Source: a virus. Taken from it: DNA of 64,000 bases. Below the pieces are notes generated by a model, which searched no databases, was not told where the DNA came from, and was given only the letters and a program-made list of their open reading frames with translations. Made by a program: the position numbers and the translations under genes. Below are positions 3,398 through 58,036 of the stretch, piece by piece; the stretch's first letter is position 1; each line of letters begins with the position of its first letter. The stretch covers positions 1 to 64,000 of IMG/VR virus record IMGVR_UViG_3300045988_090463; one strand, written 5' to 3'.

Positions 3398-4180
3398 TCA
3401 GAACGGGCATAAATTCAAGTCAACTTCCAGTCCAGCCCGTCCAATCTGAACTAGAACATTATTTCCTGTGACTTCCTGTATTTCTTTCTGTATTTTACAG
3501 GCATCTGAAGCCTGGCCACTTAAATGTACCAGTGTTACCGTCCGAAGCGATTCTGTGCGATTTTGCTTAATGAATTGCTTACAAGTTGATAAAGAGCAAT
3601 GCCCTTTTAATCGGTGAGCATAATTGACTTCTGTCTTGTCCACCAATTCTTCGCAGTAGTTGCATTCAATAACTAGATGTTCAATCTCTATCCTACGGAA
3701 ACTATATATGCAATACTCGAAATCAGTCATATACAGAAGTTTCCCCATTTCCTTATGCTCCACCAGATATCCGTAGTTCGAGCAAGGGATAAGCTGCTTT
3801 GTATCCTTATCGTATGTCGTATGTGGGAGATTGAACGGAATCACATTAAACGAACCAACTCTAAATGGATGTCTTTCTGGAACACCTTTCATTAGTTCAC
3901 CTGTTCGGATGTTCATGTCCTCAACTGTCTCGTCATTGGTGTAAATCTGAATGCCTGCATCCAAGACTTTCTTCATATTGTAGCAATGATCAAAATGCCG
4001 ATGCGTCAAGATGCAACCTGACACGTCTGATATATTATAATCAATCATCTTCAAGATGGCACTCCATCGTTTTACACCGCATTCAATAAGAAGTATTTCT
4101 CCGCTGGATGAGATTAAGGAATAGCAGTTTCCAGTTGAACCAGTCCCGCAACATCTAAATTTCATAAACATCAACCTCAT
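3398..4180 (-). CDS. metallo-beta-lactamase-fold hydrolase
   Basis: HRHFDHC (HxHxDH) motif plus later His/Asp ligand positions. The real start may be ATG 4165. Confidence 0.75.
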   Translation of the reverse strand: MRLMFMKFRCCGTGSTGNCYSLISSSGEILLIECGVKRWSAILKMIDYNISDVSGCILTHRHFDHCYNMKKVLDAGIQIYTNDETVEDMNIRTGELMKGVPERHPFRVGSFNVIPFNLPHTTYDKDTKQLIPCSNYGYLVEHKEMGKLLYMTDFEYCIYSFRRIEIEHLVIECNYCEELVDKTEVNYAHRLKGHCSLSTCKQFIKQNRTESLRTVTLVHLSGQASDACKIQKEIQEVTGNNVLVQIGRAGLEVDLNLCPF

Positions 4181-4789
4181 ATTTCCATATATATCCGCCA
4201 GCTTGTCTTCGAAAATTCCCTTTTTTATCGTATGGGGTCTTATTTGCTACTGAAGAATGTTTCTACTGCACACTCCGGTTTCTCTTTGAGCATCTTTTGC
4301 GTTGTAAAAAGCATTAATAATTTTCCCATTTAAATCTAATTGTAATATTTTTCCTTTAAAAAAATAATTATCCTTTTTCTTTTTCCTCCTATCTCTATCT
4401 CCATATTTTGCAGTGTACCTATTTCGATTATAACTAATCATTCCATCTAGCATATGCGGATTCTCTTTCAACGTTAATGCGTAATGGTCTTTTGCTGAAA
4501 TTATTGATAAATTTGTTACTTTGTTATTTTGTTTATTTCCATCTATGTGATGCACATGGTAACCTTTCGGAATTTCTCCTATAAAATGTTTGGCAACTAA
4601 TGTATGTATTCTAGTTGTATGGCATTTATTTTTATCATCATATAAATTTACCGTAAGATACCAACCATTTTTGTCTTTATTTGATGTTATATATCCTTTC
4701 GAGTTCTTTTTAAAGCTCTTCATTCTTCCCATATTTGAAATTTGATATAACCCTTCAAATCCATCAATCCATTTCCATTCTTCTTCTAT
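4155..4789 (-). pseudogene. HNH/NUMOD4 homing endonuclease, disrupted
   Basis: HNH core HVHHIDGNKQNN. NUMOD4-like EEWKWIDGFEGLYQISN lies in frame upstream of the first ATG (4732) with no start codon back to stop 4793-4795. The conserved tail VANKTPYDKKGNFRRQAGGYIWKY is in the -1 frame after TAG 4247-4249. Confidence 0.6.
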
Positions 4790-5100: not shown

Positions 5101-5447
5101 ACTTCATCATCCTCCGGGAATCTGAACACGATGTTTGCCGGTTCGAATTTCACATCTGGGCTGTTAACCATTGTTTTGATGATTCCAAAACCTCTTGCAG
5201 CCATTTTTATACATTCCTCGCAATCGTCATCGCTCATTTCAACGTTTTGCGCAAGAAACATTCCTGCATACACTTTATGCAACGCTTTCATAGCTTTTTG
5301 GGCTTTTTCATCTGTCGAATAACGAGCCATGACTGTTCCTTTTTCACCAACTATCGGCACATATACTCTTATGATATTTTCTGTTCTACTTAATGCTGCG
5401 ATTTCATAAGGAACATCAAATTCCCCATTCTGACTAATTAATCTCAC
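5097..5447 (-). CDS. hypothetical protein
   Basis: 116-aa ORF with GTG start behind GAAAGGAG. Confidence 0.55.
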   Translation of the reverse strand: MRLISQNGEFDVPYEIAALSRTENIIRVYVPIVGEKGTVMARYSTDEKAQKAMKALHKVYAGMFLAQNVEMSDDDCEECIKMAARGFGIIKTMVNSPDVKFEPANIVFRFPEDDEV

Positions 5448-5575
5448 TTCATTCTCCTTTCAATTTCTAAATCCATACTGTGGCATAATTTAATGCAGTC
5501 CCCATGAAGCATATGATTCTTGCATGCTCCGTATTTTTCATTGAATTTTTCTATCGACATCTTCCCGTCATTCAT
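5444..5575 (-). CDS. small Cys/His-rich hypothetical protein (43 aa)
   Basis: Fills the gap after the RT gene. Its stop overlaps the next start. Confidence 0.3.
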   Translation of the reverse strand: MNDGKMSIEKFNEKYGACKNHMLHGDCIKLCHSMDLEIERRMK

Positions 5576-5602
5576 TGCCCGTACCCATCTTCGGATTTTT
5601 CT

Positions 5603-6463
5603 CTATGTTTTTCTTTTCTTATCGCCACGCAATTTTCTGATATATTTTCCTTTATCAGTCACGTAATGATGAAAGCCCAGATAACACAAGCCCATGCGAA
5701 ACGGTACAATTTGTGATTTAGGGTTTAGTTCCAGTCTAAGGCTTTCAATCATCATTCGGATTGCTTCAAGAATTTCTCTGGCATCTTCTTTCGTTTTACA
5801 AATCACATAAAAATCATCGTTGTATCGTCCGTAATATGGATTTCCAAATTCAATCGTTATCATCTGATCCAGTGAATGTAAAAGCAACAATGCGTACTTT
5901 TGATTTACCTGATTTCCTAATGGAAGCCCGGGATTACCTGTACTGTCAATAAACAAATGGTTCAACCAGACTGTAAAATCATCATCAAAGTAATAATCCA
6001 AAACATCTTCCATGATTTCATGGTCTATGCAATAAAAGTATTTGTGAATATCACATTTTACAATCCAACTATTCATTCCATTTTTTTTATAGAAATCCAA
6101 CATTTGATTTCTTAACCCGTCCATTGCCATATGTTGCCCTTTTCCTTGCTGCCCGGCAGTGTTCCATTTAATCAGGATATTTTCAAGTTTCGGTGTCAGA
6201 ATGTAATCAGAAAAGCATCTCTGCACTACTTTATCCTTAAATGCACATGATTCTATCGTGCGCTCTTTTGGCTCATGAATTTGAAATTTATTATACGGAT
6301 TTATGGTATACGTTTGACTTTCCAATTGTTCCTTCAAGAGATGAATGCCTTCAAGAGACAAATTAGAAAATCTTGCAGTACCTGAATTAAATTTCTTACC
6401 GCTCTTAACTTTTTTGTAAGAACGATATAAATTCTCAAAATTTGCAACAATTTCTTTATCCAT
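5603..6463 (-). CDS. DGR reverse transcriptase
   Basis: RT motifs including LPLGNQVNQ (DGR-type IGxxxSQ-like box) and YGRYNDDF (YxDD). Lies directly downstream of a TR that matches two VRs. Confidence 0.85.
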   Translation of the reverse strand: MDKEIVANFENLYRSYKKVKSGKKFNSGTARFSNLSLEGIHLLKEQLESQTYTINPYNKFQIHEPKERTIESCAFKDKVVQRCFSDYILTPKLENILIKWNTAGQQGKGQHMAMDGLRNQMLDFYKKNGMNSWIVKCDIHKYFYCIDHEIMEDVLDYYFDDDFTVWLNHLFIDSTGNPGLPLGNQVNQKYALLLLHSLDQMITIEFGNPYYGRYNDDFYVICKTKEDAREILEAIRMMIESLRLELNPKSQIVPFRMGLCYLGFHHYVTDKGKYIRKLRGDKKRKT

Positions 6464-6567
6464 TTATTTTGTTCCTTTATATTTGTCCATTGCGGAAAGG
6501 TTATGCATTTGCTTGTATCTTTTCTGATTTCAGCTTTACGCTTACTCTGTCTGCATGTGATCCATGT

Positions 6568-6636
6568 TGGGCGAACACCATTTTCGTTGTTGTAATTGTT
6601 GTTGTTGATATAGCCCGAAGGGGAAACAACGGTATT
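6568..6636 (-). repeat. DGR template repeat (TR)
   Basis: 69 nt. On the - strand it reads AAT ACC GTT GTT TCC CCT TCG GGC TAT ATC AAC AAC AAC AAT TAC AAC AAC GAA AAT GGT GTT CGC CCA. It has 23 adenines, mostly in AAY codons. Confidence 0.85.
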
Positions 6637-6658
6637 CGCAGTGCGTAACCTGTGAAAA

Positions 6659-7030
6659 TTATCTTTTTCTGTCTTTTGTTCTCCATGAAATAGTCATGTA
6701 CTTTATATCTTTTACCATTTGCGACCATGCTTCCATTCCACCGGAATTGATAATTCCTAATTCATATGAAAGTTCTATAAAGTACATCAACTCATCACAA
6801 TGAGTAATGGCTTTTGTTTGAAGTTCTAATCGCTCTCTTTTATAATCTTTCAGATCAGTTCGGTTGGCTTCAAATAGTGACTCATAAATTTCCAATGCTT
6901 TATTTTGCATTTTATCTACAAGTGAAAACCTGTATTTTTTCGGGTATCGTCTGGCATTACTCGTAACTATTAATGTATGCTTTGCAAGTTACTTGGCCTT
7001 TATTATTACCTTTAAATCTTCATTCGCCAT
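6659..7030 (-). pseudogene. avd: DGR accessory variability determinant (avd), interrupted by in-frame TAA
   Basis: ATG 7030 overlaps the target-gene stop (TGATG). The product MANEDLKVIIKAK-TAA(6989-6991)-LAKHTLIVTSNARRYPKKYRFSLVDKMQNKALEIY... has the size (123 codons) and PKKYRF box of four-helix-bundle Avd. Only 83 aa follow the next ATG (6910). Confidence 0.7.
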
Positions 7031-7635
7031 CAATCATCATTTCCTGATTCAAAGATTGAAGAAGAAAAGATACAAACTGGGCGAACACTATTATCGCCGT
7101 CGCAAATGAGGTAGTCGATACAGCCCGAAGCGGAAACAACGGTAATTGTTGTGCTGTAATCATTTACTGGTGTACTCCATGGCGTAATCAACCACCACCA
7201 TTTCAACATGTTCGGCAGCAATTTACGATATTTCCGGTACTCATCCACAGTCAAAAGTGAAATCCTATCTTTACAATGTCCATATTCTGTCTGACCGTCC
7301 ATAGAAAGTAAATCTCGATCAAACTCAATAACTGCATCCTCTCCAAGCTCGTCCGTAATTTTTTTAAGAAAACGAGTATTTAACTCATTTCTCAGTTTAC
7401 TCGAAATCCAGTTATTTGAAGCTGAATCAAATGTTCTTTCTTTTCCATCAAATCCATTCAAAATGGCAAAATATCCTTTTTCTGTTTTATCCAGGATCAG
7501 CCATTCCATACCAGCAAGTTCAATAGCTTTTCCGATTTCCGGCTTTCCGATGTACTTTTTCTTGAATTCCGTGAATTCTTTACTTAATCTGGATAATTCA
7601 TCCTCAAAATATTTCAGATTTTTCTTCATAATCAT
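7030..7635 (-). CDS. DGR variable (target) protein 1
   Basis: 201 aa with a helical N-terminus. The C-terminus WWWLITPWST...TVVSASGCIDYLICDGDNSVRPVCIF contains VR1. Paralogue of 7632..8237. Confidence 0.8.
   Translation of the reverse strand: MIMKKNLKYFEDELSRLSKEFTEFKKKYIGKPEIGKAIELAGMEWLILDKTEKGYFAILNGFDGKERTFDSASNNWISSKLRNELNTRFLKKITDELGEDAVIEFDRDLLSMDGQTEYGHCKDRISLLTVDEYRKYRKLLPNMLKWWWLITPWSTPVNDYSTTITVVSASGCIDYLICDGDNSVRPVCIFSSSIFESGNDD
7078..7146 (-). repeat. DGR variable repeat VR1
   Basis: Aligns to TR without gaps. 12 differences fall at TR adenines and 2 at non-adenines (7089, 7131). Confidence 0.8.
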
Positions 7636-8237
7636 TCCTCCGCCTTAGATACAAAGATATTAGATTTTAAGATACAAACTGGGCGAACACCATTTACGAC
7701 GCTGCAATCGCCGTTGTAGACACAGCCCGAAGGGGAAACAACGGTACAGGTTTTCTCCAATCCACGTTCTTTCGTTGACCATGGTGATAATGTCCAATAC
7801 CAGTCGTTTAAACACGGATTCGGTGTGATATCTGTATATCCGCGTGCTTCATCAAACGTAATCGGTCGAATTTTACAATCAACAGTCCCTAATTTCTGTC
7901 CATCCGCAGTGATAATATATGCTGTGTGTGTCTCGATATTTCCTGCCCCGAATTCTTCTTCGAAGTCTTTCAGGATTTCAGTGTCACACAGTTTCTTTAC
8001 CTTTGATGTTTTGTAATCTGAGGTATCACCAAACTCTACATTTTCTTTCACCAGATCGAGTGAAATAATTTTCGTTGTATATACATACTGTTCCAGAACC
8101 TTGTATTTACGCTTTCCAGTGGTCTGAAAAACATCTCCACGTTTCAGCATTGACAGTGCAACCTTGTCAGCTTTTTCCTGTTTTTCCAGCAGTTCAACGA
8201 GTTCCTTGGCTTTCTTTAAAATTTCTTTATTGTTCAT
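7632..8237 (-). CDS. DGR variable (target) protein 2
   Basis: 201 aa. The C-terminus WYWTLSPWST...TVVSPSGCVYNGDCSVVNGVRPVCIL contains VR2. ATGA overlap with target 1. Confidence 0.8.
   Translation of the reverse strand: MNNKEILKKAKELVELLEKQEKADKVALSMLKRGDVFQTTGKRKYKVLEQYVYTTKIISLDLVKENVEFGDTSDYKTSKVKKLCDTEILKDFEEEFGAGNIETHTAYIITADGQKLGTVDCKIRPITFDEARGYTDITPNPCLNDWYWTLSPWSTKERGLEKTCTVVSPSGCVYNGDCSVVNGVRPVCILKSNIFVSKAEE
7680..7748 (-). repeat. DGR variable repeat VR2
   Basis: Aligns to TR without gaps. All 13 differences fall at TR adenines. Confidence 0.85.
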
Positions 8238-8238
8238 A

Positions 8239-9183
8239 TCACATCTCCTCCTGTTTCATAAAATCCGGAATTTCTGGTTCTTTACCTGCTGCCGGAACTG
8301 GTTCTTTCTCGGCAGTCTTTACGACTTCTGCGACTGTTGGCTGTTTAGGCTGTTCTTCAATTGCCATTGGTTCTGGGATGAATTCCTCTTTATTGGCGTG
8401 CTGTTCGATTTCATATGCAACATCAGCTGCAAAAGCGTCATTTCTTGAAACTGTTTCTGTATCATCGTCCGCTTCCTGTACGAAAACATCACCATGAGTG
8501 TTGATGATCTGCTTTAAGGCACGATTGATAACGGTTTTCTTTGCCATCTGATCAGTGAATTTCTGGTGTGTGCCATTCCCATTTTCCTTGTATCCGAAGC
8601 CCTGTGACCAAGCTTGCTTAATCTGTTTGATGTTCATTACTTCCAAATGCTTCGCCCCATCTTCCATCAGCACAACTGCGTATGCTCCAAGGATTTTTTC
8701 GTTATCAATATTCATAAAATCCTGTTCGTGAGAATCCAGAACCTTATTTCCATCTTCAATATGATATTTGAATTTGTCTCCTTGGTAGATGATCTCTGCG
8801 TGAATATCTTTCATTCCGTATCTTCTGGCAATCGTCATATTTCCGAAATATGATCTCTGGAACTGACACTGTCCGCTGTAAGCGATGAAATACCCCTGTT
8901 TTTTCTGTACCGAAAGTCCCAGTGTCGCCATGTTCATAAGACTGTTTGCGATGCTAATCTGGCTACAAGATTCCAGAATTGGTTTGTTATTCCTGTCTTT
9001 CGTTTCCTTGAGAACTAGATATGCCCCCATAAGCGCATTGCTCAAGTTGTAGTCTTTTGGGAACGAAAGACCATATTTACATTTTTCTTCAAGCTGTTTT
9101 GTCAATCCGTCAATAAACTGATTGTTAATTACAACTGCTGCCTGCTGTTCTCCTACTGTTGCTACCTGTGTTTTGTTTGCCAT
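8239..9183 (-). CDS. recT: RecT-family single-strand annealing protein
   Basis: 314 aa. SIANSLMNMATLGLS ... GYFIAY ... KFTDQMAKKTVINRALK matches the RecT family pattern. Confidence 0.8.
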   Translation of the reverse strand: MANKTQVATVGEQQAAVVINNQFIDGLTKQLEEKCKYGLSFPKDYNLSNALMGAYLVLKETKDRNNKPILESCSQISIANSLMNMATLGLSVQKKQGYFIAYSGQCQFQRSYFGNMTIARRYGMKDIHAEIIYQGDKFKYHIEDGNKVLDSHEQDFMNIDNEKILGAYAVVLMEDGAKHLEVMNIKQIKQAWSQGFGYKENGNGTHQKFTDQMAKKTVINRALKQIINTHGDVFVQEADDDTETVSRNDAFAADVAYEIEQHANKEEFIPEPMAIEEQPKQPTVAEVVKTAEKEPVPAAGKEPEIPDFMKQEEM

Positions 9184-19270: not shown

Positions 19271-19478
19271 TGGCAAAACCTGCATTCACGATCACATCTC
19301 CTCCCCAGAGTAATCTGGCAGGCTGTACCAACGTATTAAGATGTCGATTTTTTTCGAACTTCTGCTGAACTATTTACACATTTCCGTTTCAGTGCTACTA
19401 TATTACCATAATTAATTGATTAGATGAGGATAATCTGATGAAAGTTGAAGCGTAGGCGATAAACGGAAGGTGATTACT

Positions 19479-20177
19479 ATGAAAATTGCTATTTGTGACG
19501 ATTGTGAACTACAGGTTGAGTATTTTAAGCATCGGATTGAACCGTTTTTGAAGCAAAACGGTGACCGGAATTATACGATAGACGGTTATTTCAGTGGGGA
19601 ACCCTTGATAGATGATGTTAAGGACGGAAAATGGTTTGATATGATTGTCTTGGATGTAATACTTAAAAACGAAAATGGCGTGGATATTGCCAAAGAACTC
19701 CGAGAGTGTGGATATAAGGGCAAAATTGCTTTCTGGACAGCTCACAAGGATTTTGTTTTTGATGCGTTGGATGTTGAATTTACGCATTATATCATCAAGG
19801 GAAATGAACACGGAAGAATGTTTTCTATGATTGACAATACCTTGAGTGATATGAAACACAAGATGCTCACAATCAGACACAGAGATTGCATTATAAGGAT
19901 TCCATTGAACAAAATCGAGTACCTCGAAGCACGGGATAAGCAAGTTTTTGTTCATTGCACGAACGGGATTATGCACAGTATGTATGCAACTTTAAAGTCG
20001 GTTGAGTCTTACCTTGATAAACGGTTTTTGCGTTGCCATAAGTCATTTGTTGTAAACATGGATTATGTGCAAAAGCTGGATTCTGATTTTACGATGTTTT
20101 CCGGGGATAAAGTGTTGATTCGTAAGAACGGATATGCGGATATTAAAAATCAATATTGGGAATACATTATTAAGTGA
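19479..20177 (+). CDS. LytTR-family response regulator (orphan)
   Basis: REC domain (MKIAICDD...LDVILKN) plus LytTR domain (IEYLEARDKQVFVHC...LRCHKSFVVN). No kinase gene nearby. Confidence 0.8.
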   Translation: MKIAICDDCELQVEYFKHRIEPFLKQNGDRNYTIDGYFSGEPLIDDVKDGKWFDMIVLDVILKNENGVDIAKELRECGYKGKIAFWTAHKDFVFDALDVEFTHYIIKGNEHGRMFSMIDNTLSDMKHKMLTIRHRDCIIRIPLNKIEYLEARDKQVFVHCTNGIMHSMYATLKSVESYLDKRFLRCHKSFVVNMDYVQKLDSDFTMFSGDKVLIRKNGYADIKNQYWEYIIK

Positions 20178-56513: not shown

Positions 56514-56573
56514 ACCATTCATAGAAAGGTAAGATAAAAATGAAATCCTTCCAATGATTGCAGTTCATTGGAA

Positions 56574-56656
56574 CGGTGCATCCGTGATTCGAACACGGAC
56601 AACATTTCTGTTGGAAGACTTAGCAAGTCTCTCTGTTACCATTACAGCAATGCACC
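56574..56656 (-). tRNA. tRNA-Ser(GCU)
   Basis: Manual cloverleaf: GGTGCAT acceptor, anticodon loop TTGCTAA, long variable arm CAAC-AGAAAT-GTTG, T-arm CCGTG-TTCGAAT-CACGG. Confidence 0.7.
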
Positions 56657-56734
56657 ACTTAACTAACCAAATCTGATTTTATTGTATCGTCAAAAAATCA
56701 AAAAAAACGGTGGGAACCTTATTCGCAAGAGCTA

Positions 56735-56759
56735 CGCCCACAAGTGGAATCGAACCACT
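56735..56759 (-). other. isolated T-arm plus acceptor-3'-strand-like fragment
   Basis: AGTGG-TTCGATT-CCACT followed by TGTGGGC-G. No matching 5' acceptor strand or anticodon arm found within 250 nt. Confidence 0.35.
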
Positions 56760-56992
56760 ACGCTGCACCTAACTCGCTCCGTATGTTTTATATAAGAAAA
56801 CCAGAAAGAAAACCACTTCTCTATCCTGCTATACACTGTTTGGAAGAACCATTTCAAGCACGTTCACTTATTGACTACTAGAGGAAATTCACTTTGCCGA
56901 TAAGTAATACATACTCGGAACTCGGCCAACATTCTGCCATGTATTACCCTGTGCTTTTCCTACCACCAAACTTTCAGTCTCCAAACAGTGAA

Positions 56993-57076
56993 TGGGAGAA
57001 GATGGAGTCGAACCATCCGAACCACAATGGCAACAGATTTACAGTCTGCCCCGCTACCTCTACGGAATATTCTCCC
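56993..57076 (-). tRNA. tRNA-Tyr(GUA)
   Basis: GGGAGAA acceptor, anticodon loop CTGTAAA, long variable arm, T-arm GGATGG-TTCGACT-CCATC. Confidence 0.75.
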
Positions 57077-57390
57077 AAAACCCGGATTCCCGGGTTAGCA
57101 ATATGTTTATCGTGTTATGCTTTCCACTAGGCTGTTTTATGCTGTGTCAGTCACACAGAGTTGTTTCGGATATTATTATGCCTTTTTGGGCTATTTTATG
57201 CTTCTTGAAAACTCCCTTGTCATCAATGCGCGCTTGTGATGGCTTATTGAAACTAAGAAACATTCATCGGACGGGAAATCAGATCAAGCACAAGCCTATG
57301 CCGTTACATATCTTTGCTCATTCTGATTCACATACGCTCATCCGAAAGTTTTTTCTGCCCATAAAACGGATGGGCAGCATATGGAAGAAA

Positions 57391-57463
57391 TGGAAATTCT
57401 GAGATTCGAACTCAGGACTTCCCGGTTATGAGCCGGGCGTTCTAACCACTGAACTAAATTTCC
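57391..57463 (-). tRNA. tRNA-Met or Ile2 (CAU), elongator type
   Basis: Canonical cloverleaf GGAAATT/AATTTCC, D-arm GTTC-AGTGGTTA-GAAC, loop CTCATAA, T-arm CTGAG-TTCGAAT-CTCAG. Confidence 0.85.
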
Positions 57464-57685
57464 TGAGTAGAAAATATTACCAGCACCTCAAAGCCATATT
57501 TTCTACTGTTGCGATTCTTTGCCACCAGTCGCAACAAAGGCTCCCTTTTTTGGTTTTGCTGTCACCTATACGGGAATCCCATCCGGGACGTTTGAAGCCC
57601 CTTTAGGCAGCTCCGTTGAGCTAGATGGGTATCGGAGGGTCTATGTGAAATAAACCATTGCCAGGTACATGCGCAACCCGACAAA

Positions 57686-57757
57686 TGGGGCTAGTGGGAT
57701 TCGAACCCGCGAATACAGCAGTCAAAGTGCTGTGCCTTACCACTTGGCGATAGCCCT
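57686..57757 (-). tRNA. tRNA-Gln(UUG)
   Basis: Anticodon arm CAGCA-CTTTGAC-TGCTG, T-loop TTCGAAT. Has an A1:C72 and a C50:A64 mismatch. Confidence 0.7.
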
Positions 57758-58036
57758 AAAATCTTTCTCCCACTCCGCACCATTACAAAAGCAGGAGAAA
57801 GAATTGTGTGTGATATAATTACTATTTCTGCAATGCAAACAATATATATGTGGAGAAAATCGAATTTAATATAATCGACTACAGAAATTTTTTTACACTA
57901 AGTTGGATGTAAAGAATATTTGCTTGCGTACCGCTCCACAATCGGGCAAGCGTATCCTTCCGGTTTGATTATAGGTTTAACCCGTTCTATGATAAAAAAC
58001 GGAATAATCCTCGCAGGAAATGCTAAAAGCATATTT

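Follow-up and report, generated by a model that had tools for sequence, protein, structure and literature searches.

A two-target diversity-generating retroelement with stop codons in avd and the reverse transcriptase gene of a human-gut phage

In the diversity-generating retroelement (DGR) of Bordetella phage BPP-1, a single target gene (mtd, encoding the tail-fibre protein Mtd) is followed by avd, a template repeat (TR) of 134 nt, a spacer and the reverse transcriptase (RT) gene brt, and the cassette stands beside the tail genes. Naorem et al. 2017 (PMC5703328) proposed that in BPP-1 the direction of homing is set by pairing between an RNA primer and the initiation of mutagenic homing (IMH) site, and a template:primer duplex has been published for the same system (PMC6182149; 10.1101/2023.10.23.563531). 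In gut Firmicutes phages, DUF6273 has been assigned to C-type-lectin-like DGR targets, two-target cassettes included (PMC10743442, PMC11792537): the Faecalibacterium phages Lelie, CP11, Roos and Pioen carry DGRs with DUF6273 or C-type-lectin-like targets (PMC11792537), and the DGRs of phages nd4 and nd12 have two targets (PMC10743442). Inactive DGRs form a category in Roux et al. (10.1101/2020.04.01.020958), and silencing by RT-impairing mutations has been discussed (10.64898/2026.02.18.706561). Here we describe a DGR at positions 5444–8237 of a 64,000-nt stretch of viral DNA (positions 1 to 64,000 of IMG/VR record IMGVR_UViG_3300045988_090463, hereafter the window). It is a genuine DGR of a human-gut phage, in which one template serves two adjacent target genes, and it belongs to a very abundant gut-phage family. 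We consider it very probable that it is a BPP-1-type phage DGR whose machinery is genetically switched off in the window, by a CAA to TAA change at codon 14 of avd and a CAG to TAG change at codon 287 of the RT gene, leaving its two variable repeats (VRs) frozen.

One template, two targets and their helper genes

Firstly, we established the anatomy of the cassette. Target gene 2, target gene 1, avd, the TR and the RT gene follow one another on the minus strand (Table 1), as a preliminary description of the window had stated; its other statements about the sequence also held when re-checked, with the corrections to its reading given below. The gapless alignment of the three repeats that it had called for reproduced every figure it gave for the TR, VR1 and VR2. 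The bias of the mismatches towards TR adenines, which make up one third of TR positions, is strong in both VR2 (hypergeometric p = 3e-8) and VR1 (p = 9e-6), and the two remaining mismatches of VR1 are C to G (Pro to Ala) and G to A (Gly to Ser). An independent repeat search of the window returned the identical three-copy family. Homology between TR and VRs stops after GTTCGCCCA, beyond which both VRs continue with GTTTGTATCTT and the TR with ACATGGATC, again as previously described. The TR begins 22 nt past the avd stop codon and ends 104 nt ahead of the RT start, while both VRs lie close to the 3' ends of their genes, 10–15 codons ahead of the stop codons. About 20 nt upstream of VR1 (7147–7167, GATTACAGCACAACA) resemble the sequence upstream of the TR (6637–6656, GGTTACGCACTGCGA) with a 1-nt indel, and may be the remnant of a once longer TR/VR homology.

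Table 1. Coordinates of the retroelement and its parts in the window
Feature	Coordinates	Strand	Description
Target gene 2	7632..8237	-	201 aa; N-terminal helix and DUF6273-type domain; VR2 near the C-terminus
VR2	7680-7748	-	13 mismatches to TR, 13/13 at TR adenines
IMH-like VR2 flank	7665..7679	-	GTTTGTATCTTAAAA; 11 contiguous bp (one G:T) with Sp47-57
Target gene 1	7030..7629	-	199 aa from ATG 7627-7629; open reading frame open to 7635; carries VR1
VR1	7078-7146	-	14 mismatches to TR, 12 at adenines, 2 elsewhere
IMH-like VR1 flank	7063..7077	-	GTTTGTATCTTTTCT; 15 contiguous bp (one G:T) with Sp43-57
avd	6659..7030	-	123 codons; in-frame TAA at codon 14 (6989-6991)
TR	6568-6636	-	69 nt, 23 A, mostly in AAY codons; NTVVSPSGYINNNNYNNENGVRP
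Spacer (Sp) RNA	6464..6567	-	104 nt between TR and RT
IMH*-like TR flank and hairpin H1	6554-6566	-	Part of the spacer
Hairpin H2	6532-6542	-	Part of the spacer
Primer-strand-like motif Sp43-57	6511-6525	-	Part of the spacer, nearly invariant; AGAAAAGAUACAAGC
Candidate priming adenosine Sp58	6510	-	Part of the spacer
Hairpin H3	6486-6496	-	Part of the spacer
RT	5444..6463	-	339 codons; in-frame TAG at codon 287 (5603-5605); TGA at 5444-5446

Secondly, we assigned the RT. The motifs GLPLGNQVNQ and RYNDDF are present, in agreement with the LPLGNQVNQ and YNDD of the preliminary description. That description had also given the RT 286 aa and a left end at 5603, a position that is in fact the in-frame TAG inside a 339-codon gene: the frame continues for 52 codons past the TAG to the TGA at 5444, and hundreds of homologues of 339–342 aa align over the full length of the 339-aa protein thus extended. 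The best match of the intact orthologue P0001 in the PDB is BPP-1 bRT (8ub7_A, E = 8e-26), an entry that shows 100% identity to brt as annotated in that phage, and the next matches, a group II RT (7uim, 7e-11) and a retron-type RT (5hhj, 3e-10), are 15 orders of magnitude worse. In the alignment, R74 of bRT falls on R68 and I181 of bRT on L182 of LGNQVNQ; L182, G183, N184, Q185 and Q188 are invariant in the 12 aligned sequences, N187 being neither invariant nor nearly so. We regard as scarcely credible the alternative that the RT comes from another retroelement (group II intron or retron) and that the repeats are ordinary paralogous gene ends. The best NCBIfam match is indeed a group II RT/maturase model, and some database records name RT homologues in that way, but this match (102.9 bits) is far under the cut-off of 300 bits in a collection that holds no DGR-RT model, and we did not use it for classification. 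The PDB comparison, in contrast, places the enzyme with DGR RTs, an Avd homologue and the TR stand directly upstream of it, and the third repeat copy is non-coding, with mismatches restricted to its adenines.

Thirdly, we examined avd, whose ATG (7028–7030) overlaps the target-1 stop codon (ATGA). Owing to the in-frame TAA, its longest stop-free open reading frame is only 83 aa (6659–6910). The read-through translation matches NCBIfam DivGenRetAVD (E = 7e-10) and Pfam PF05635 (23S_rRNA_IVP/bAvd, E = 3e-6), both matches being under their curated cut-offs, and both profile alignments extend across the codon-14 stop. The orthologues, which are intact at 123 aa with CAA at codon 14, bear database names such as 'Avd-like protein' and 'four helix bundle protein'. 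In the PDB, no relative was found with the Avd sequence by itself.

The two targets are paralogous (BLASTP E = 3e-23, 35% identity over 127 aa), as previously proposed. The equal length of 201 aa proposed with it does not stand for target 1: its start is most likely the ATG at 7627–7629, since it is preceded at 8 nt by a GGAGG and is the start chosen by gene callers on all related contigs, so that the protein is likely 199 aa long. Both match phrog_9958 (target 1, E = 3e-46; target 2, E = 1e-23), and Pfam DUF6273 is matched over its cut-off of 23.5 bits by target 1 (26.6 bits), under the gathering cut-off by target 2 (20.7 bits) and by 57/71 diverse members of the target family; the C-type-lectin assignment of DUF6273 is taken from the literature (PMC10743442). 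A search of the target profile against PDB sequences gave no significant match. The protein database holds more than 3000 variant clusters of target 2.

To this anatomy we added the variation among about 40 related loci, collected through intact RT proteins and IMG/VR. Mismatches between VRs and their own TR fall at TR adenines in 693/723 cases (30 elsewhere), and the 35 loci with an intact avd carry 34 distinct VR pairs. In 119 target-2 sequences (118 database orthologues and the window's own), only the TR-adenine codons have high column entropy, with values near zero at VVSPSG and GVRP. The preliminary description had named confinement of polymorphism to TR-adenine columns and the grouping of the RT with DGR RTs as marks of a DGR, and both are found here. 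The DGR family is active, because of this adenine bias and because nearly every genome with intact genes has VRs of its own. Thus, RT affinity, the Avd profile match and adenine-limited variation among relatives support the DGR identity, the gene order and the two diversified paralogous targets. One IMG/VR locus (L043) holds three VR-type copies, two of them identical and one equal to the TR with zero mismatches but with a VR-type flank; such an arrangement may have come from duplication at a contig end or from a VR that had just homed without mutation.

The locus resembles the BPP-1 DGR in its order of target, avd, TR, spacer and RT, in the homology of its RT to bRT, in an Avd that is a four-helix-bundle homologue and in adenine-specific mutagenesis. 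It differs in having, where BPP-1 has a single tail-fibre protein, two small targets in tandem (about 200 aa each, of the DUF6273 type), a TR of 69 rather than 134 nt, LGxxxNQ in place of IGxxxSQ in the RT, a cassette within the recombination/early module and not beside tail genes, no GC-rich stretch or evident stem-loop past the VR, and nonsense mutations in avd and the RT gene. With the DGRs of gut Firmicutes phages, likened here by their published features and not by sequence identity, it shares habitat and host phylum, DUF6273 targets with the VR at the C-terminal end of the domain, a single TR that can serve two targets, and small targets such as the tgt2 proteins, described as single-domain targets between short helices. 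Its targets are close paralogues of equal size, whereas theirs are a large and a small protein, and the window copy is inactivated.

Stop codons in the window and lesions in its relatives

The preliminary description had called the DGR complete. It is not: avd is interrupted by TAA at codon 14 and the RT gene by TAG at codon 287, where relatives have CAA and CAG. In a 94%-identical contig (L001), avd is called at 123 aa and the RT at 339 aa with exactly these codons, so both lesions are single C to T changes; Gln (CAG) also stands at RT position 287 in the closest seven (P0001–P0007) of the twelve aligned homologues. Since both helper genes are nonsense-mutated, the VRs of the window would be frozen alleles, and we infer that the window copy is probably inactive and was recently silenced. 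The VRs behave in keeping with this reading. The six loci with a broken avd carry three VR pairs, and their VRs are common to different samples; the window and an independent ENA contig (L003/L036) are 100% identical over the whole cassette, both VRs included; and the exact target-2 protein of the window occurs on at least 26 contigs.

That the stops are sequencing or assembly errors, the real phage having an intact DGR, is very improbable. Each is a single-base difference from relatives, as an error would be; however, the exact 286-aa RT product recurs on 7 contigs and the 83-aa Avd remnant on at least 23, from independent sources (JGI, ENA, Logan, nr), and the ENA contig has the whole cassette at 100% identity. 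Stop-codon recoding occurs in some gut phages, and this precedent is what favours a reassigned genetic code in which TAG and/or TAA would be read as an amino acid and both genes would be intact. We give this possibility next to no weight. Structural open reading frames of 1584, 1150, 658 and 617 aa run uninterrupted under table 11, two different stop codons would both need recoding, and relatives at 94–98% identity have ordinary Gln codons at both sites. In addition, no suppressor is found among the four tRNA genes of the phage, which are clustered at 56573–57758 on the minus strand (Ser-GCU, Tyr-GUA, Met-CAU and Gln-UUG). We take the window to use the standard genetic code and reject recoding on the long table 11 frames and the lack of a suppressor tRNA, as we reject assembly error on the recurrence on independent contigs.

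A further alternative is that the DGR still works at a low or conditional level, the TAA and TAG being read through, for example by the near-cognate tRNA-Gln(UUG), so that mutagenesis is throttled. We keep it as a minor rival, because a Gln codon underlies each stop and the phage has a gene for tRNA-Gln(UUG) (57685–57758), the cognate of both codons that were turned into stops; low-level read-through could hence restore the wild-type protein. The double-stop genome is also recovered on 7 contigs, and at least three lineages, whose TRs differ, have the TAA14 allele of avd together with VRs that follow their own TR at non-adenine sites. As the VRs match their own differing TRs, either the allele recombined between lineages or homing outlasted its origin. 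We nevertheless judge leaky activity unlikely. The intact avd allele is far commoner (480 contigs, against 19–31, or about 20–30, for the exact 83-aa remnant), unrelated lesions for which read-through is no remedy (a frameshift, a VR1xTR deletion and a 1.5-kb deletion) occur in the same family, each broken-avd lineage keeps the same VRs from sample to sample whereas intact lineages almost never share theirs, and neither a read-through context nor a suppressor tRNA was found.

The relatives of the silenced window copy carry other, independent lesions. Among contigs with the target-2 allele of the window, we found the double-nonsense cassette, a 1.5-kb deletion or, in L039 only, an intact DGR. 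The 1.5-kb deletion (L035, L037, L038 and L040) runs from avd codon 9 to RT codon 326 (window 7004..5487) with the junction GGTAAT|GCCA; it is illegitimate and takes out avd and the TR together with almost the entire RT gene. A different deletion is present in L034. Avd is interrupted by a 1-bp deletion at codon 7 in L009 and L012 and by TAA at codon 36 in L010, and was lost in L019 when VR1 recombined homologously with the TR (the junction corresponds to window 7078..6638), so that target 1 ends there in pure TR sequence. In L059 and L062, the RT gene is frameshifted by a change from A7 to A6 (GAYAAAAAAGAAA) in a lysine-rich stretch at codons ~283–297 (window ~5600–5625). Real slippage, slippage during transcription or faulty assembly could each account for this shorter A-run; the TAG of the window lies a few codons from it, in the same lysine-rich stretch. 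The window copy thus resembles silenced DGRs in that its VRs keep the adenine signature of past homing while the machinery is disabled and the VRs are constant between samples. It differs in that the lesions of its family are directly readable in series, from nonsense mutation and frameshift to recombinational loss of avd and deletion of avd, TR and RT.

The target-2 gene (7632–8237) is identical at 606/606 nt in L034, L035, L038, L039 and L040, in which the neighbouring genes are only 89–99.9% identical or are other genes altogether. It looks like a frozen allele that was moved by recombination or swept through the population, and the DGR linked to it is usually dead or deleted. A tentative and rather doubtful explanation is that the repeated DGR knock-outs and the linked frozen allele reflect positive selection to stop hypermutation after a successful binding variant had arisen, followed by recombinational spread. 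The C to T alleles that turn Gln codons into stops might be easily reversible or leaky switches.

The spacer and the direction of homing

The spacer between TR and RT is strongly conserved: 0/104 nt differ between the window and L001, in which the flanking genes differ by 2–3%, and its conservation is recognisable down to about 45% RT identity. It contains three small hairpins that were revealed by comparative analysis only. H1–H3 covary, with 96.6% of cells paired as against at most 48% when the partners are slid and with 5 pairs changed on both sides, whereas minimum-free-energy folding of the TR and spacer RNA alone was no better than for shuffled sequences (z = -0.5). Rfam gave an RT-2 match of 25.3 bits on the spacer region, below the cut-off of 40, that vanished on a narrower slice and is not relied on. 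The spacer also includes the Shine-Dalgarno sequence of the RT gene, AAAGGA. An upstream ACCUUU could pair with its AAAGG around H3 (6474–6500), and this pairing, which is 95% conserved and without covariation, may hide the RT ribosome-binding site.

We compared the nearly invariant spacer motif with the sequences that flank the repeats. It is complementary to the sense strand directly 3' of each VR, from the first base past the last templated A, over the lengths given in Table 1, while its contiguous run with the TR flank is just 3 bp. The preliminary description had read the diverging flanks as a directionality signal of the IMH versus IMH* type, and the pairing supports that reading. Among 66 unique combinations, drawn from 21 spacer lineages, the longest run averages 10.5 with the VR flank but 5.3 with that of the TR, and the VR run is the longer one in 61/66 of them. 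At three variable positions, pairing within the own lineage beats 5000/5000 shuffles, a result that is suggestive and gives no probability, because the sequences are related. Furthermore, synonymous sites are unusually well conserved in the ~10 codons past each VR. The spacer-pairing motif TTTGTATCT is present twice within 35 nt past VR2 (7647–7655 and 7670–7678), the second copy in another frame (Phe-Val-Ser), and target 1 has a degenerate second copy of the VR-flank motif, CTTTGAATC.

The comparison with BPP-1 is close. There, Sp47-56 pairs with VR 118-127 over 10 contiguous positions, and with TR 118-124 makes only the published 7 bp, mismatch included; this pattern agrees with the published template:primer duplex (PMC6182149; 10.1101/2023.10.23.563531). 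The primer strand is nearly equally far from the initiation site in both systems (Sp47-57 in the window, Sp47-56 in BPP-1) and in both its complementarity to the IMH at the VR exceeds that to the IMH* at the TR. We considered whether the complementarity between spacer and VR flank was a new mechanism and rejected the idea: the same was proposed earlier for BPP-1 by Naorem et al. (PMC5703328), so our result is a corroboration in a distant DGR clade.

Intact relatives of the window copy would work as follows. Avd and RT would bind an RNA that comprises the 3' end of avd, TR and spacer; the spacer segment Sp47-57 (AAGAUACAAGC) would fold back as the primer strand; and cDNA synthesis would begin at the last A of the TR, with misincorporation opposite adenines. 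The RNA-linked cDNA would then replace VR1 or VR2 in the two paralogous 200-aa DUF6273-type proteins. The TR flank, which pairs with the spacer motif at 6/11 positions in the window lineage, that is, weakly, probably also pairs with it for priming, as in the BPP-1 duplex. The direction from TR to VR would come from the primer RNA, which pairs far better with the IMH-like VR 3' flank than with the IMH*-like TR flank; comparison among relatives supports this, and RNA-guided homing and the priming site are inferred.

Several observations weigh against the reading of the window as a silenced DGR of the BPP-1 type. The inactivity of the window copy is deduced from nucleotide sequence, and the glutamine codons behind both stops and the recurrence of TAA14 set out above leave some weight to leakiness. 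In DGR RTs, the signature [I/V/L]GxxxSQ replaces QGxxxSP (PMC7826257); the LGNQVNQ of the window RT keeps the L, the G and the final Q with N for S, and is clearly not QGxxxSP. The fold of target 2 is unconfirmed: two AF2 runs gave models with predicted local distance difference test (pLDDT) scores of 44.7 and 65.3 and values below 50 in the VR region or C-terminus, and a Foldseek search of the low-confidence model against the PDB returned nothing with E < 1, a search that is uninformative because AF2 gave no confident C-terminal domain. Some relatives have TGC for TGT in the VR flank and a spacer without the compensating change. Finally, folding of the 80 nt of DNA past each VR (z = -1.5 for VR1, +1.2 for VR2) disclosed no G+C-rich hairpin or BPP-1-like stem-loop; in BPP-1, the stem-loop helps homing and is not strictly required (PMC12875486).

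Phage context and meaning of the locus

The window comes from a human-gut phage that is tailed and about 76 kb in size, and encodes the large terminase, the portal protein, the major head protein and the tape-measure protein as well as tail proteins and an endolysin-like protein. No GenBank phage matched the cassette in a megablast search. An orthologous Avd is named in a Blautia obeum database record, which suggests a host among the Lachnospiraceae. The cassette lies within the early/recombination module, between RecT, which is upstream, and a pair made of an HNH endonuclease and a metallo-beta-lactamase-fold protein, which is downstream (window 3398–4180, 4247–4732 and 8239–9183 for the module); in relatives, the latter protein has weak precomputed matches to the anti-Pycsar Apyc1 family. 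The module is at least 12 kb from the tail genes, an unusual place if the 200-aa targets are receptor-binding proteins. A LytTR-type response regulator, with a receiver and a LytTR DNA-binding domain, is encoded at 19470–20177 on the plus strand, opposite to the DGR strand and in one of the few plus-strand stretches of the phage.

As a DGR, the locus is ordinary, since human-gut phage DGRs with DUF6273 targets and two-target cassettes have already been described; it is a decayed copy, and a not previously known member, of a common, well-understood system. It carries a caution for annotation: a textbook adenine signature between TR and VRs need not mean a live element, both helper genes being nonsense-mutated here. 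Its relatives span all stages from intact to deleted and offer a natural series for how and when hypermutation stops, a question raised by current theory. The spacer comparison lends independent comparative support, with some covariation, to the published proposal that the IMH would be recognised through base pairing with the RNA primer joined to the cDNA, and such pairing bears on how DGR cDNA finds and enters the VR.

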